A stretch of DNA of 41,200 nucleotides from a virus. The stretch's first letter is position 1. Each line of letters begins with the position of its first letter. Below, piece by piece: positions 1 through 40,889 of this stretch. The position numbers were made by a program, and so were the translations under genes. The notes under the pieces are model-generated. The model searched no databases, had not been told where the DNA came from, and saw only the letters and a list, made by a program, of their open reading frames with translations. The stretch lies in the IMG/VR virus record IMGVR_UViG_3300045598_000011. The stretch is one strand, 5' to 3'.

Positions 1-127
1 TTCTGTGATAAAAAGTGTAATAGCACCTAGAAACGTTGATATAACAGCATTCTTTCATTCTTGGTGCAATATTGGTGCAATGACAGCTATAATTGGGCTA
101 ATTTCCGTTCGATTTCATCGTCCAGTT
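1..127. repeat. Terminal direct repeat, copy 1; identical to 41074-41200 and marks circular closure of a 41,073-bp unit
   Basis: Read directly: the same 127 nt (ttctgtgataaaaagtgtaatagcacc...gatttcatcgtccagtt) occurs at both window ends. Confidence 0.95.
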
Positions 128-1181
128 TATGCTTGTACTCGTCTATTAGATAAGCATAGATGTTGCTGGTCGTTGTCATGTTGGAGTGCCCTAGTCGTTT
201 GCTGATTGCGTAAATATCGATTCCTTGACTAAGCAAATAAGCCACATGAGAATGTCGGAGTGAATGGAACGTGTAGTTGCGTTTGATGATTCCGGCTTTT
301 TTCATTGTCTTTTTTAAGTAGTCGTTCACGTCTGGTGAAATGTTGAAGCTGAAAGATTGCGGGGTCTTGAAGAAAACTAACGGGGTCTTGTTGACTTTCA
401 ATTGTGATAGTATGCGTAACAATTCATCATTAACCCGTATCGTTCGTTTTGAACTCTCGTTCTTAGTAGGCTTAAATCCAGTCATATAATGGTAGTCGAT
501 TGATTTATTAATGCTGATCATGCGGTGCAGGTAGTCAATATCCTTCCATGTCAGCGCTAGGATTTCCGAAAATCTGGCACCGGTATAAATTGCCGTTAAG
601 ATGATGTAAGGCTTGATATTATCCGGTTGTAAATCAGCGTTTAAAGCCTGTATCAGCCGTTTTAACTCGTTAATTGATAGATATTCCGGATTACGGGTTA
701 AAGCCTTGTCATGGACGATATTTGCGTTGTAAGTAAAGTCTTTCGATATAATGCCATCTGCAATTGCTGACTTAACGCATGATTTTATCTTTGATGTTAA
801 ATCTCTCATTGTACCAAGCGAATGATTTTTGCCGTAATCATTTAAAAATGCTTGATACGTGCTGCGCTTAATCTGTTTGATTCGCATAGTGCCAAAATGA
901 TCAACTAAGACACGATAGGCAAAAACGTACCCGCTTGCCGTTGCCTTTGATATTTTTGGCAGTCGATAGGTTTCGTACCACGTTTTAAAATAATCTGCAA
1001 AGGCGGGGTTAATTGATATATCAATCCCGTTTAACAGTTCATTTTCTAGCTTAGTCGCATAGTCCCGTGCTTGCGCTTTGGTGGCAAAACCAGACTTTGC
1101 TTTCTGGTGAAGTTTTCCATTTTCATCATGCCAGCTGATTCTGGCTTGCCATTTTCCGTTTCGTTTCGTAAAAGAAGCCAT
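87..1181 (-). CDS. int: Tyrosine-type site-specific integrase
   Basis: 364 aa. Catalytic signature is GARFSEILAL (Arg), HSLRHSH (His-x-x-Arg) and LGHSNMTTTSNIYAY (His...Tyr). RBS is AAAGGA. It is the first gene of the minus-strand lysogeny block, next to attP-like repeats. Confidence 0.93.
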   Translation of the reverse strand: MASFTKRNGKWQARISWHDENGKLHQKAKSGFATKAQARDYATKLENELLNGIDISINPAFADYFKTWYETYRLPKISKATASGYVFAYRVLVDHFGTMRIKQIKRSTYQAFLNDYGKNHSLGTMRDLTSKIKSCVKSAIADGIISKDFTYNANIVHDKALTRNPEYLSINELKRLIQALNADLQPDNIKPYIILTAIYTGARFSEILALTWKDIDYLHRMISINKSIDYHYMTGFKPTKNESSKRTIRVNDELLRILSQLKVNKTPLVFFKTPQSFSFNISPDVNDYLKKTMKKAGIIKRNYTFHSLRHSHVAYLLSQGIDIYAISKRLGHSNMTTTSNIYAYLIDEYKHKLDDEIERKLAQL

Positions 1182-1225
1182 AGTCTAATCCTTTCGTACA
1201 TATGTTCGATTTAAGTCTATTTTTA

Positions 1226-1250
1226 AACCCTAGTCATTACGGCTAGGGTT
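1226..1250. terminator. Hairpin AACCCTAG-N9-CTAGGGTT; part of a 40-bp module duplicated at 2364-2404
   Basis: Inverted repeat read directly, with A/T runs on both sides. It lies between the MazF-like gene region and the int RBS. Confidence 0.6.
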
Positions 1251-1260
1251 ATTTTGTATA

Positions 1261-1295
1261 ATAAAAAACGTCATTAGCTGTACAACTAATGACGT
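1261..1295 (-). terminator. Intrinsic terminator (10-bp stem plus T-run on the minus strand) ending the MazF-like gene 3' UTR
   Basis: ACGTCATTAG (1268-1277) pairs with CTAATGACGT (1286-1295). The minus-strand RNA continues with UUUUUAU. Confidence 0.75.
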
Positions 1296-1448
1296 CAAGG
1301 GCTCATAGGCCCACGTAAATAAAGAAGAGAAAGTTGATTTAAAAAGCAAACAACTCTTTCTTCGTTCCTTAATCGGAACAATAATATAAAGACCATTCGG
1401 TCAGCAGTCGCTCCTGCTAATGGCTATATTATTAAGCAATTATCTTCT

Positions 1449-2342
1449 TTAGTCAATAGTTTTAAATATTTTTTCTTTGATTTTTAATAGTTTGTCATCT
1501 GAAATCATTACATTCCCAGTTATGGAATATTTAGAGAACTTAGCAACTCTTAGCTTGCTAATAGATCTAATAGCATTTGTGTTTGCATATGATTCTTTGT
1601 TGTACTTCTCGATCTTTTTTAGAAGTTTTTCTGTTTCATTAACTTCGCTTCGAAGTTGGTTGAGTTCATTTATAACTTGTTGATGAAAAGAAAGCGTGGT
1701 ATCCATGTAGGATACATACGCAAAAATATTTTTGTGTTGTTCCCAAGAATCGGTGCTTTTAATTTTGTTTATATAGCTAATTTCATGATTTTCTGCACTA
1801 ACTATATCTGAAAAAGTATTTATGTCTGGCATTTTAGGCGGTTGGAGCTGATTATTGCTTAAAAAATTAAATTCTTCATCAGTAAGTTTGATTTTAGGGA
1901 ACGTGTTTGTTTTGGCGAAGGCTTCGAGTCTTTTCTGAAGACTATTGATTTTATTATTGCATTCTTCATTCCTAATAGTAAACAGTTTTTGCACGCCCTG
2001 TAGTAATTCGTATCCAAGTTTAGTGTAACCCTTATGAAATTTTGATGATAAAGGAACTACGATAATATCACGCTTATATTTAGTGTCATTTTTGGATAGA
2101 ACAATAGCAAAATGCATTCCAGCCATTTCAGAGCCAACAGTTACACCATAGTTAACCATCACAATAGTTCCTTGCTTAAATTTACGATAGTATTTAGGAA
2201 GGCCATTATTTAATTCTTGTTGTAAAGTAGTACCGTAAAAATCTATCCAATCAGGCAATCGTTGTAATTTCCAGTTTTTATTATCGCTGTAATAAACATT
2301 GTTGAAGGTTGCAATTTTTTTACGCTTTGCTTCGTTTTTCAT
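1449..2342 (-). CDS. MazF/PemK-like endoribonuclease-fold protein interrupted by a ~150-aa helical insertion; no adjacent antitoxin gene
   Basis: Residues ~55-112 (FKQGTIVMVNYGVTVGSEMAGMHFAIVLSKND..IIVVPLSSK) resemble the MazF N-terminal strands. Residues ~262-297 (AIRSISKLRVAKFSKYSITGNVMISDDKLLKIKEKI) resemble the MazF C-terminal 'QIRTIDKxRL...' segment. RBS is GGAGGA. Confidence 0.7.
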   Translation of the reverse strand: MKNEAKRKKIATFNNVYYSDNKNWKLQRLPDWIDFYGTTLQQELNNGLPKYYRKFKQGTIVMVNYGVTVGSEMAGMHFAIVLSKNDTKYKRDIIVVPLSSKFHKGYTKLGYELLQGVQKLFTIRNEECNNKINSLQKRLEAFAKTNTFPKIKLTDEEFNFLSNNQLQPPKMPDINTFSDIVSAENHEISYINKIKSTDSWEQHKNIFAYVSYMDTTLSFHQQVINELNQLRSEVNETEKLLKKIEKYNKESYANTNAIRSISKLRVAKFSKYSITGNVMISDDKLLKIKEKIFKTID

Positions 2343-2371
2343 ATATAATCCTCCAAATTAAGCTTATTTTT

Positions 2372-2394
2372 AAACCCTAGCTGTTACGGCTAGG
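2372..2394. terminator. Hairpin ACCCTAGC-tgttacg-GCTAGGGT downstream of 2404-3195 and ~30 nt upstream of the MazF-like gene start
   Basis: 8-bp stem read directly, flanked by TTTTTAA and ATTTTTG. Near-identical to the module at 1218-1258. Confidence 0.65.
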
Positions 2395-2403
2395 GTATTT
2401 TTG

Positions 2404-3195
2404 TTATTTAGTCCACTTAAACTCTTTTGGTGAAAATACTTTTGAATGCCCGATAACTTCATTACCGCTGTAAACAGTAGTGTGAACCCCTTGGGTTGAT
2501 TCGCTATCACTGATTTTTCCTTCTGTAAGTAAGGTTGCAGTTGCTGCGCTTTGCGCTGATTGTGCGATGGTTGTAAGCTGCGATTCGGTGAGATTGTCAG
2601 CGTCATAGATGTATACTTCAATGCCATTATCTTTCCATAAGATTTTTTGAACGTGCGTAGCCCAATTGAATTGTGGGAATTTTTCGCCATTTTGAACAGG
2701 ATTGCCGTCTTTATCAAGCGTGCCATTAGCCCACCCTTGATCTTCAGTTAATGATTTCATTAACTTATCATTAATCGAATCTGATTTTTTCTTGCTGCTA
2801 GATGTTTTGGTTGAGCTTTCTTTTTTGCTGCTTGATGTTTTAGCTGAACTTTCTTTCTTGCTGCTTGATTTAGCTTTTGAACTTGATTGAGCGCTTGAAG
2901 AACTAGCGCTTGATGTTTTAGTTGAACTTTCTTCCTTACTGCTTGATTTAGTTTTTGAACTTTCTTTCGCACTACTCGATTTAGTTTTTGAACTTGATTG
3001 AGTGCTTGAAGAACTTGCTGCTTTCTTATCTGCTGGTGTCGGTCCTTGAATGCCAGCTGATACAAAACCAAGCGCTAAAATTGACCACAGAACCATTCGA
3101 ACGTATTTCTTTTTATGATAGTCTGGCAAAACAAGTTTCCAAACGATGAGAGCTGCTAAAACAATTGATACTAAAAGAAAGCCTACTTTTTCCAT
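2404..3195 (-). CDS. Membrane-anchored protein with a Ser/Lys-rich repeat linker and a C-terminal globular domain; candidate superinfection-exclusion or surface protein
   Basis: Two N-terminal hydrophobic helices (VGFLLVSIVLAALIVWKL, MVLWSILALGFVSAG) are followed by ~110 aa of SSSKxKSSSKKESSxKTSS repeats. The int-repressor position is typical for sie-type genes. ATG at 3195 is preferred; the TTG at 3210 in the ORF track is an alternative. Confidence 0.7.
   Translation of the reverse strand: MEKVGFLLVSIVLAALIVWKLVLPDYHKKKYVRMVLWSILALGFVSAGIQGPTPADKKAASSSSTQSSSKTKSSSAKESSKTKSSSKEESSTKTSSASSSSAQSSSKAKSSSKKESSAKTSSSKKESSTKTSSSKKKSDSINDKLMKSLTEDQGWANGTLDKDGNPVQNGEKFPQFNWATHVQKILWKDNGIEVYIYDADNLTESQLTTIAQSAQSAATATLLTEGKISDSESTQGVHTTVYSGNEVIGHSKVFSPKEFKWTK
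2770..3010. repeat. Imperfect tandem repeats (~33-36 nt) encoding the Ser/Lys-rich linker
   Basis: Units such as cttgctgct(t/a)gatgttttagctgaactttc recur about seven times, read directly. Confidence 0.8.
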
Positions 3196-3210
3196 ATTAT
3201 CCAACCCCAA

Positions 3211-3609
3211 TTATTTGTAATTTTTAATCGTTTCTTTAACAAACGATTCATAGTCCGATGATATATCGTTAAGCTGCATGAAATCTATATAGTTGATATT
3301 TTCTGGTTCAATCCCGGTATGTTTGATATAGTCGTCTACTAACTCATGGACAACGCAACGGTTTATTTCACTTTCCATTTTTAATCGAGCCGAAATAGTA
3401 GCGTTGTAAAGCGCTGTTTGGCCTGACTGCTTGGCGATATGTTCTAACTCGTGGATAAGCGTTACTTTCTGCACTCGCGCTGGGTAGCGGTTAGAGATGA
3501 ACACAAACTTTAACTGCTTGTCTGCGCTGATCGTTGCATAGCCAGGCTTTTCCATATCTATATAGTGCACGCTGATATTTAGTTGTTTGACAATGTTGCG
3601 AACGTCCAT
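3211..3609 (-). CDS. ImmA/IrrE-family zinc metalloprotease (repressor-cleaving partner)
   Basis: 132 aa with HEXXH (LIHELEHIAK). It is translationally coupled directly downstream of the XRE/cI-like repressor, the canonical ImmR-ImmA arrangement. Confidence 0.8.
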   Translation of the reverse strand: MDVRNIVKQLNISVHYIDMEKPGYATISADKQLKFVFISNRYPARVQKVTLIHELEHIAKQSGQTALYNATISARLKMESEINRCVVHELVDDYIKHTGIEPENINYIDFMQLNDISSDYESFVKETIKNYK

Positions 3610-3611
3610 AT

Positions 3612-3944
3612 CTAGTCCCGATTGTCTAAGTACGCCTTAATAATACTTTCCATTAGTTTCCTATCATGTTCAGTTGGTTCTTTGCCGTCCGCTGACATGA
3701 TAGTATCCATTGCTTGCTGAATTGTGATTTTATTTTTGGGTTGTTTATGGCCCAGCAAATAATCGGTCGTTACATTAAACAAATCCGCTAAACGTGAAAC
3801 ATTCTCAAAATCCGGTTCAGTGCGTCCGTATTCCCAATTGGCGTAAGTCTGCATGCTAGATAGACCAATAGTTTTAGCTACATAAGTTTTAGACCAGCCT
3901 TTGCCTTCACGAAGGTTAGTTAAACGTTCACTGAATTTTGACAT
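3612..3944 (-). CDS. cI-like XRE-family HTH repressor
   Basis: HTH is WSKTYVAKTIGLSSMQTYANWEYGRTEP. Start trimmed to ATG 3944 (MSKFSERL...), which has an AGGTGG RBS 8 nt upstream. Divergent from the cro-like gene. Confidence 0.88.
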   Translation of the reverse strand: MSKFSERLTNLREGKGWSKTYVAKTIGLSSMQTYANWEYGRTEPDFENVSRLADLFNVTTDYLLGHKQPKNKITIQQAMDTIMSADGKEPTEHDRKLMESIIKAYLDNRD

Positions 3945-3969
3945 TGTAATCACCACCTATTTTATTTTT

Positions 3970-38514: not shown

Positions 38515-39576
38515 ATGGAACAATTAATTTTTTATCCACGTGTCATCAAAGTCGATGACACAGACCGCACTATTAACGTCATAGCGCTTGTTAATGATGA
38601 ACGGCTAGAATTTACCGATGACATGACTTACACGCTGAAACTGGGCAATCAGAGCGGTTATATTAAGGATATAGCTTTAACCCAACCGGCATTTAGCAGT
38701 CAGAAACTTAAAGGCTTGCCGTCTGATATGTATACCGCCGAGCTTTGGGTTACGAATGGCGACAAAACAAGAATCTATCCTAACAAAGATAAGGGCTATC
38801 TGGGATTGCAAGCTAATATAACGGCAATGGTTGGCGAAGTGCTGCCAACACTAACAGTTAGCGAAATCAAAGCTGAAATCGAATCTAAGTTGAAAAACGT
38901 GGGTAGCGGTGGCACTGGTGAAAAAGGAAATGACGGCAAAAGCGCATATCAAATCTGGCTTGATGCGGGCAACAAGGGTACGCAACAAGACTTTCTGAAT
39001 AGCTTGAAAGTTAAAGGCGATCCCGGCAGTAACGGAAACGATGGCAAGAGTGCATATCAAATCTGGCTTGATGCGGGCAACAGCGGAACAGAGCAAGACT
39101 TTATCAACAGTCTTAAGGCGCCGAGTGTCGCACCTTCAAAACGTGCTGCGACAAGCCTTTTTGTTGATATGAACGATTCAAAAAATATCATAGGTCGGTT
39201 CGACAATGGCTGTTGGGTTGAAATGCGGACAATGGCAAGCTGGGTCCCGTTGTATGCAACTGGTTCAGCTGGCTATGGTAGTGTAACTTTACAATCGTTT
39301 GTGCACGATCAATGCTGGTGTAACGTTCTATCCTATATCAACGGTTTTATGACCGTAAGCGCAATGCAAAAAGCTACACCAGCGCAGTTCGAGTTGTGGA
39401 AGTCCTGCGTGGTGCATGAACCATATGCTGATGTTGATCAGTACGATTGGAGCGCTTGCCGTATCACGTCAACCGGTAGCGATGTCGGCGAAGTCGATTT
39501 TGCAAAAATGATGTTTGCGGTCGGCTTGTTCAGCGAAAAAACGATCTTATCTTTGGGTGCAGTTAAAAAATCATAG
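38515..39576 (+). CDS. Post-lysis accessory protein with a duplicated fibre-type motif GNDGKSAYQIWLDAGNxGTxQDFxNSLK
   Basis: 353 aa, RBS AAGGGAG, its own terminators on both sides. Cys/Trp-rich C-terminal domain. Confidence 0.7.
   Translation: MEQLIFYPRVIKVDDTDRTINVIALVNDERLEFTDDMTYTLKLGNQSGYIKDIALTQPAFSSQKLKGLPSDMYTAELWVTNGDKTRIYPNKDKGYLGLQANITAMVGEVLPTLTVSEIKAEIESKLKNVGSGGTGEKGNDGKSAYQIWLDAGNKGTQQDFLNSLKVKGDPGSNGNDGKSAYQIWLDAGNSGTEQDFINSLKAPSVAPSKRAATSLFVDMNDSKNIIGRFDNGCWVEMRTMASWVPLYATGSAGYGSVTLQSFVHDQCWCNVLSYINGFMTVSAMQKATPAQFELWKSCVVHEPYADVDQYDWSACRITSTGSDVGEVDFAKMMFAVGLFSEKTILSLGAVKKS
38926..39130. repeat. Tandem duplication with a 108-bp period inside 38515-39576
   Basis: CATATCAAATCTGGCTTGATGCGGGCAACA occurs from 38945 and again from 39053. 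The flanks have diverged. Confidence 0.85.
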
Positions 39577-40152: not shown

Positions 40153-40177
40153 GACCGCCTTTGGGGCGGTTTTTTTA
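40153..40177 (+). terminator. Intrinsic terminator (G)ACCGCC-tttgg-GGCGGT plus a T-run, about 5 nt upstream of the DUF3800-like gene RBS
   Basis: Read directly. The ORF-track TTG start at 40161 lies inside this hairpin. Confidence 0.8.
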
Positions 40178-40193
40178 TTATGAGGTGTCTAAC

Positions 40194-40889
40194 GTGGATA
40201 TATACGTTTACTCAGATGAATCTGGGGTATTTGACAAAGATAATAATGATTTCTTTGTTTATGGTGGTTTGATGTTCTTATCTAAAAACGATCATGAAAA
40301 TTGGAAAAGAAAATACCTAAACGCAGAGCGAACTATCAGAAAAATTGAACGATTGCCCAAAAAAGTAGAAGTAAAGGCAACAGCTATTTCAAATAGTTCA
40401 AAAGGTAAGCTTTATAGATCATTAAATCATACTGAAAAATTCGGCGTTGTTGTTCATGAGAAAAAGGTTCATCCTAAAATATATACTGATAAAAAGTCGA
40501 AGCAAAGATATCTTGATTATGTTTATAAAATAGGCGTGAAAAGAAAATTTGAAAATTTGATTTCGAGAGGCTTAATTATTCCTGAAGAAGTTGAAAATAT
40601 CTATTTCTTCGTTGATGAGCACAATACTGCTACTAATGGTATTTATGAGCTTCAAGAAGGATTAGAACAGGAATTTAAAAAGGGTACGTATAATTATAAT
40701 TGGCAGAAGTACTTTCCACCAATTTTCCCATCTGTATGTAGTGTGCGAGTTAATTATTGCAATTCTGAAAAAAAGACGCTTATTCGTTCAGCGGATATCA
40801 TTGCTAATAGATTACGCTTTTACGCAACACAAAATAACTTGTATACCTTTAACAAAAAAACTGAAATAAATGTTGTTTGCCAACCATAG
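40194..40889 (+). CDS. DUF3800-like protein
   Basis: GTG start 6 nt after GAGGTG. The N-terminus (M)DIYVYSDESGVF and the late ...LIRSADIIANRL fit the DUF3800 DESG and xxAD motifs as I recall them. 231 aa. Confidence 0.6.
   Translation: MDIYVYSDESGVFDKDNNDFFVYGGLMFLSKNDHENWKRKYLNAERTIRKIERLPKKVEVKATAISNSSKGKLYRSLNHTEKFGVVVHEKKVHPKIYTDKKSKQRYLDYVYKIGVKRKFENLISRGLIIPEEVENIYFFVDEHNTATNGIYELQEGLEQEFKKGTYNYNWQKYFPPIFPSVCSVRVNYCNSEKKTLIRSADIIANRLRFYATQNNLYTFNKKTEINVVCQP

Follow-up and report, generated by a model that had tools for sequence, protein, structure and literature searches.

Defence proteins in which a toxin and its antitoxin are fused, or otherwise carried on a single chain, include CapRel SJ46 and EzeT, whose toxin folds are RelA/SpoT-like and that of a zeta kinase, respectively. 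A further single-protein system, Sma, the primary paper on which is that of Fillol-Salom et al. (2022, Cell 185:3248), is represented in DefenseFinder by the model FS_Sma. The satellite SaPIpT1028 has been reported to carry Sma as a single-protein anti-phage system (PMC12409344), and sma has been treated as a defence gene in the Staphylococcus aureus island vSa-alpha (PMC12829572). Sma has also been noted as integrated in prophages (preprint 10.1101/2025.08.06.669032), while FS_Sma has been detected in 26 INPHARED phage genomes surveyed (bioRxiv 10.64898/2026.05.06.722914). Tha and HepS represent prophage-encoded, single-protein abortive-infection systems based on a HEPN RNase, and their trigger is provided by structural proteins of incoming phages (PMC11087260, PMC13043305). 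EzeT is among the references cited in PMC10865869.

Analysis of a 41,200-nucleotide stretch of viral DNA (IMG/VR record IMGVR_UViG_3300045598_000011, in its entirety referred to here as the window) identified a gene located between a phage repressor module and an integrase gene (Table 1) as a divergent member of the Sma family, the design of which is already published, catalogued, and very common. This assignment extends a defence system of Staphylococcus satellites to the temperate phages of lactobacilli, where the gene is situated at the end of the repressor operon. We consider it probable that the gene specifies a Sma-family, single-protein, MazF-like anti-phage function which acts by the abortive mechanism proposed below.

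Table 1. Position and supporting basis of the Sma-like gene, its segments, and its flanking features within the window
Feature	Positions	Strand	Basis
Tyrosine integrase, downstream, co-directional	87..1181	-	Pfam Phage_integrase, E=1.2e-25
47-nt repeat, copy 1, with hairpin 1226-1250	1211..1257		Just upstream of integrase start; apparent 3' cassette boundary
Intrinsic terminator 3' of the gene, 13-bp stem and U run	1267..1296	-	Terminator scan; fold energy -15.8 kcal/mol, z=-4.45
Sma-family single-protein MazF-like gene	1449..2342	-	ORF list, Pfam PemK, phrog_1412, homologues
MazF barrel, second half, residues 248-297 (strands 5-6 and C-terminal helix)	1452..1601	-	Deletion test, Foldseek, ISKLR motif
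Helical hairpin insertion, residues 112-247, ~135 aa	1602..2009	-	AF2 secondary structure, length variation, low conservation
MazF barrel, first half, residues 56-111 (strands 1-4)	2010..2177	-	Pfam, MoxT/EndoA alignment, invariant residues
N-terminal helical extension, residues 1-55	2178..2342	-	AF2 helices, conservation, motif in SaPIpT1028 ORF005
Shine-Dalgarno sequence GGAGGA	2349..2354	-	Read from sequence, 6 nt 5' of ATG; kept in relatives L011 and L021
47-nt repeat, copy 2, with hairpin 2374-2396	2358..2404		Between upstream stop codon and Sma-like RBS; apparent 5' cassette boundary
Upstream lysogeny genes, co-directional	2404..3956	-	Pfam
Membrane-anchored Ser/Lys-rich protein, 268 aa	2404-3210	-	Sequence features
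ImmA/IrrE-type metalloprotease	3211-3609	-	Pfam
HTH repressor	3612-3956	-	Pfam

The gene product and its MazF-like fold

The gene constitutes a complete open reading frame of 297 aa followed by a stop codon, with its ATG at positions 2340 to 2342. It is encoded on the minus strand, which the preliminary description had left unspecified. Residues 56 to 103 of the product match positions 1 to 48 of the 109-position Pfam PemK_toxin profile (PF02452) at 37.7 bits, where the gathering score is 23.1 bits; PHROG 1412 (phrog_1412) covers the whole protein (E=9e-48), and NCBIfam returned a sub-threshold MazF match (17.3 bits versus a cut-off of 120). Upon in silico deletion of residues 113 to 249 or 119 to 244, the PemK match was extended to profile positions 1 to 103/104, with scores of 40.6 to 47.0 bits, and this gain in coverage indicates that the C-terminal segment completes the domain. 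Profile searches with the C-terminal 53 residues alone, or with the insertion alone, returned nothing relevant. When compared to PDB sequences, the full-length family profile produced coiled-coil noise only, because the insertion dominated the search, a problem which was solved by use of an insertion-less family profile. The latter matched Bacillus anthracis MoxT (residues 4 to 106, E=1e-3) in addition to the MazF proteins of S. aureus, Bacillus subtilis, Escherichia coli, and Mycobacterium tuberculosis; a single insertion-less sequence matched MazF weakly, at an E value of about 1.3.

The AlphaFold2 (AF2) model, which was based on an alignment of 34 homologues and has a mean pLDDT of 83.7, places four strands in the first half of the barrel (residues 59 to 64, 76 to 81, 92 to 99, and 107 to 110) and two in the second (251 to 253 and 259 to 262), the latter half being completed by a terminal helix (282 to 296). 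In a Foldseek comparison of this model with the PDB, the best 26 matches were all MazF, EndoA, or MoxT chains, with target-normalised TM scores of 0.67 to 0.80, and the alignments extended over approximately 250 columns, thus bridging both barrel halves across the insertion. The ISKLR motif of the second half aligns with IDKQR of MoxT. By profile comparison and structure prediction, residues 56 to 111 and 248 to 297 are, therefore, confirmed as the two halves of a single predicted MazF/PemK barrel. The preliminary description, which was made from the sequence alone, had proposed such a barrel, split by a helical insertion, and both the PemK/MazF profile scores and the AF2 and Foldseek results, in which the two segments form one barrel, bear this out. 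The second half starts near residue 248 and not at residue 262. Similarly, the insertion is present as described, but it comprises approximately 135 aa and not the proposed 150 aa or so at nucleotides 1559 to 2000, and its supposed richness in Lys, Glu, and Asn proved to be a mild enrichment, with K/E/N/Q/D/R accounting for 44% of its residues as opposed to 38% in the remaining protein.

Alignment with MazF indicates that the insertion replaces the beta4-beta5 loop; as suggested in the preliminary description, this site may be the one at which MazF binds its antitoxin or substrate. Its modelled helices (residues 112 to 145, 155 to 163, 177 to 195, and 204 to 246) comprise two long elements, the first and the last, and a small helical tip. 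Among 191 family members in which both barrel halves are present, the lengths of the span between these halves form a continuum from 26 to 160 aa. The N-terminal extension of 55 aa, which had likewise been pointed out beforehand, is predicted to be helical (residues 3 to 18, 24 to 27, and 29 to 44) and is conserved to nearly the same degree as the barrel, with F13, Y17, K25, L29-P30, W32, Y36-G37, L40, E43, and P49 being retained. For relatives which are 30 to 50% identical to the query, the mean majority fraction was calculated to be 0.76 for the first barrel half, 0.69 for the extension, 0.60 for the second barrel half, and 0.39 to 0.44 for the insertion. The difference between the extension and the insertion marks the former as part of the core of the protein and the hairpin as its variable part; judged from these alignments, the helical hairpin is the fastest-evolving segment of the protein.

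Family diversity, active site, and relationship to Sma

A word-indexed search retrieved 46 relatives with lengths near 300 aa, the majority of them from lactobacilli. In an exhaustive profile search of cluster representatives (50% identity), no fewer than 1001 clusters matched with an E value of 1e-3 or lower, 688 of which satisfied a limit of 1e-10. The split-barrel design is thus shared by a family of at least 1001 sequence clusters and is published and catalogued as Sma/FS_Sma, so that the earlier view of an unusual single-gene design is not upheld. A peptide-pattern scan of genome contigs yielded five loci only, because the patterns employed were narrow. One viral contig (L026, 3569 to 5318) carries two Sma-like genes in tandem, the first encoding a 217-aa protein with a short insertion and the second a protein of 321 aa, and at another locus (L039, 3944 to 4719) a Sma-like copy is split by a frameshift.

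The first barrel half carries E72, H77, D86, P97, S/T99, and S100, and the second carries S262, K263, and R/K265. Across the 191 sequences with both halves, H77, P97, S100, and K263 are invariant, E72, D86, and S262 are retained in 189, 187, and 188 sequences, respectively, and position 99 is always occupied by either Ser (121 sequences) or Thr (70 sequences). Alignment to EndoA and MoxT equates H77 with R25, S/T99 with T48, and E72 with the Glu of the GSE loop. R25 and T48 are the two catalytic residues of B. subtilis MazF (EndoA), their counterparts in E. coli MazF being R29 (the catalytic Arg) and T52 (the catalytic Thr). The catalytic Thr/Ser position of canonical MazF is, therefore, retained at residue 99, whereas its catalytic Arg is absent, the aligned residue being His77 in every sequence. 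This pattern of conservation indicates that the active-site geometry of MazF is strongly constrained in the family and has been retained, with an invariant His in place of Arg. RNase activity is assumed here, because the catalytic Arg of characterised MazF proteins is replaced by His.

The replacement of R25 in all 191 sequences would also be in keeping with a protein which has the MazF fold and is not a nuclease, the barrel being no more than a scaffold. Such a protein would act by binding, for example by sequestering or blocking some part of an infecting phage or by modulating the lysogeny switch of its own phage. CcdB, a member of the same fold superfamily, binds gyrase instead of cleaving RNA, and the gene is always found within the lysogeny module. 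However, E72, H77, S/T99, S100, and K263 fall on the catalytic or RNA-binding positions of MazF, as in an active enzyme, and His often serves as the general acid/base in RNases; furthermore, the published description of the staphylococcal relative is that of a defence system and not of a regulator (PMC12409344). Such a non-nuclease function is the main rival to the proposed mechanism and is considered unlikely, and a MazF-type RNase is the reading we favor.

A tblastn search of annotated phage records returned 110 records, all of which were temperate phages or satellites of Staphylococcus or Streptococcus, with the matches usually being located 1.5 to 2.3 kb from the integrase end. The best match among these was ORF005 of SaPIpT1028 (27% identity over 282 aligned positions, BLASTP E=7e-25), the product of which scored 153.5 bits against the family HMM and displays a PemK match at residues 54 to 117, followed by a coiled coil. 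The 15.6-kb record in question (AY954948), which is labelled "phage PT1028," corresponds to the satellite SaPIpT1028, and none of its ORFs other than ORF005 produced a match to S. aureus MazF or to one of the barrel halves. Since it is the sole MazF-like ORF of SaPIpT1028, we infer by elimination that ORF005 is the published Sma protein. A defence role, which had also been suggested at the outset, is likely for the window gene on these comparative grounds, because its closest annotated relative is the sole MazF-like ORF of a satellite reported to carry Sma (PMC12409344).

The annotation of this family is problematic. PHROG 1412 bears the label "antitoxin mazE-like," although its members possess the MazF toxin fold, and this label has spread to RefSeq phage records, in which "PemK domain phage protein" and "toxin" are also encountered; NCBI labels the family "type II TA toxin." PADLOC-DB v2.0.0 returned no match for the window protein, nor any MazF or Sma match for the SaPIpT1028 protein, a result which is uninformative because this database version does not include a Sma model.

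Genomic setting and the search for an antitoxin

The window represents a complete temperate phage. An identical Sma-like protein is encoded by a metagenome contig of 41,198 bp, the integrase and lysin ends of which are joined, and by a prophage integrated beside rpmF/yceD (L012 and L013); a megablast search of phage records with the left 6 kb of the window produced no match. At the other prophage end, the GH25 endolysin gene is followed by two further accessory genes, one for a 353-aa protein (38515 to 39576, + strand), for which neither Pfam nor PADLOC provided a match, and one for a DUF3800 protein (40161 to 40889, + strand), and a tRNA-Ser gene (anticodon GCT; 17310 to 17398, + strand) is present inside the phage genome.

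The Sma-like gene lies between the repressor module and the integrase gene, all being encoded on the same strand, and in every related locus it is co-directional with, and 3' of, a CI-type or HTH plus ImmA repressor module. The assignment of the gene to a "moron" slot between repressor and integrase is, accordingly, upheld by the Pfam matches of its neighbours and by its position in related loci. No promoter-like site was detected in the 61-nt gap upstream of the gene (2343 to 2403), and read-through from the repressor operon is, therefore, the simplest reading, the Sma-like gene probably being transcribed from the lysogeny genes upstream; the hairpin at 2374 to 2396, located between the Sma-like gene and its upstream neighbour, could limit such read-through. 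The two copies of the 47-nt direct repeat, which are 85% identical and occur at these two sites only within the window, each fold into a T-tailed hairpin on the + strand. As the repeats flank the gene, and as homology to two relatives with a different upstream gene (L011 and L021) begins at the second hairpin, they look, from sequence comparison, like the edges of a gene cassette which can be exchanged.

The Ser/Lys-rich protein encoded immediately upstream consists of an N-terminal membrane segment, a linker derived from a 111-nt tandem repeat (2794 to 3023), and a C-terminal domain, which matches no Pfam family and recurs in the protein encoded 5' of a distant Sma-like gene (L008; 29% identity over 86 aa, E=1e-6). 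It may function as a surface or superinfection-exclusion protein.

As had been noted in the preliminary description, an antitoxin partner is not apparent: the ORF list of the window contains no antitoxin-sized ORF adjoining the gene, and no small partner ORF of the MazE/PemI type is conserved in 32 distinct related loci. The 267-nt gap which precedes the integrase gene harbors ORFs of 33 and 39 aa, both of which overlap terminator hairpins, and this gap is not alignable in a distant relative. Because the gene is always distal in an operon which starts with a labile DNA-binding repressor, an arrangement reminiscent of the antitoxin-toxin order, the protein might still represent a conventional type II toxin, the antitoxin of which was missed; the repressor, the product of the co-transcribed gene upstream, or a MazE-like protein which is encoded by the chromosome and acts in trans would be candidates for this role. 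The immediate upstream neighbour, however, differs between the 32 loci, being a CI-type HTH-S24 repressor, an ImmA protease, an unrelated secreted protein, an integrase, or a second family member. Even relatives with 90 to 96% identical proteins carry another upstream gene, with homology extending from the hairpin only, while in SaPIpT1028 the gene upstream is that of the integrase, and the published system is described as a single-protein one (PMC12409344). A missed protein antitoxin is, as such, deemed improbable.

The flanks of the gene were also assessed for RNA elements. Positions 1186 to 1296 on the + strand, where two strong hairpins separate the Sma-like gene from the start of the integrase gene and the z score of folding is -5.9, matched the Enterococcus sRNA EF3314_EF3315 of Rfam below its threshold (30.2 bits versus a gathering score of 100, E=2.9e-4), and this region could be an antisense sRNA or simply a pair of back-to-back terminators. 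No Rfam family reached its gathering score in the flanks, and these contain no ToxI-like tandem repeats, the only strong arrays being inside the upstream coding region (2788 to 3023); a type III-like RNA antitoxin of the ToxIN/AbiQ type was rejected, given this lack of tandem repeats. In Lactobacillus prophages (L005 to L007, 6583 to 7027; L027; and L029), small opposite-strand ORFs of 45 to 79 aa are located just 3' of the Sma-like gene and recall the antisense inhibitor gene ith of staphylococcal Tha (PMC11087260); the window does not contain such an ORF.

An RNA antitoxin, whether type III-like or antisense, which is transcribed from the flanking noncoding DNA would be in keeping with the two near-identical, T-tailed hairpins that flank the gene on the opposite strand, with the sRNA-like match and its strong folding, and with the control of the staphylococcal Tha gene via an antisense transcriptional unit (PMC11087260). 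Such control is nevertheless highly improbable, considering the absence of ToxI-type repeats, the Rfam score of some 30 bits against a required 100, the failure to detect a + strand promoter-like site between 1100 and 2400, and the lack of alignable flanks in the distant relative, and the hairpins are more simply explained as terminators or cassette boundaries.

Proposed mode of action and comparison with known systems

We favor a protein which is inactive on its own and requires no separate antitoxin. In a lysogen, the gene would be transcribed by read-through from the repressor promoter, and its product would remain inactive when alone. Upon infection by another phage, a product of the latter would be sensed, most plausibly by the variable hairpin, and this would release a MazF-type RNA cleavage activity built on His77, Ser/Thr99, Ser100, Glu72, and Lys263. 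Cleavage of RNA would then stop translation, and the infection would be aborted. More tentatively, it is conceivable that the extension and the hypervariable hairpin together form a built-in antitoxin and phage sensor of this His-dependent RNase, with hairpin length and sequence determining which phage protein acts as the trigger. The insertion may, as suggested in the preliminary description, pack over the active face and act as an in-cis inhibitor. The remaining interest of the family resides in its self-restraint and its active-site variant, and the split barrel, the invariant His, the conserved extension, and the fast-evolving hairpin provide experimental targets for determining how a toxin is kept safe without an antitoxin.

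Relative to Sma of SaPIpT1028, the window protein displays full-length, colinear homology, sharing the N-terminal extension with its LPxW motif, the PemK-like first half, the coiled-coil insertion, and a second half with ISKL(K/R)V, and both genes are located on a mobile element, adjoining its integrase, in the absence of an antitoxin gene. The two proteins are only 27% identical, however, and the insertion, at approximately 135 aa, is longer than that of ORF005 (approximately 100 aa); moreover, the window gene belongs to a temperate phage of the Lactobacillaceae and follows the repressor module, whereas ORF005 belongs to a staphylococcal satellite and follows the integrase gene. In common with canonical MazF/EndoA/PemK proteins (PF02452; PDB 4MDX, 4HKE, and 5CR2), the protein is predicted to possess the barrel fold (target TM of 0.67 to 0.80, as above), the GSE loop motif, the (I/V)xKxR strand, and a Ser or Thr at the site of the catalytic Thr. 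It differs from these in the helical hairpin of 26 to 160 aa within the beta4-beta5 loop, the conserved 55-aa extension, the invariant His which replaces the catalytic Arg, and the lack of a MazE/PemI gene.

Tha and HepS may be likened to the window gene as single-protein, RNase-type defence systems of temperate phages in which the lysogeny module drives expression, features which are presumed in the present case, although their nuclease fold is HEPN and not MazF. Tha is, in addition, accompanied by the phage-encoded inhibitor Ith on the opposite strand, whereas the window gene has no equivalent adjoining ORF. With CapRel SJ46 and EzeT, the protein would share, in the working model, the combination of a toxic domain and a restraining element within one polypeptide, to which CapRel adds a phage sensor. 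The toxin folds of those proteins are unrelated to MazF, and in-cis restraint in the Sma family is a proposal; if the extension and hairpin do constitute a built-in antitoxin and sensor, the Sma family would be the equivalent, built on MazF, of fused toxin-antitoxin sensors of the CapRel kind.
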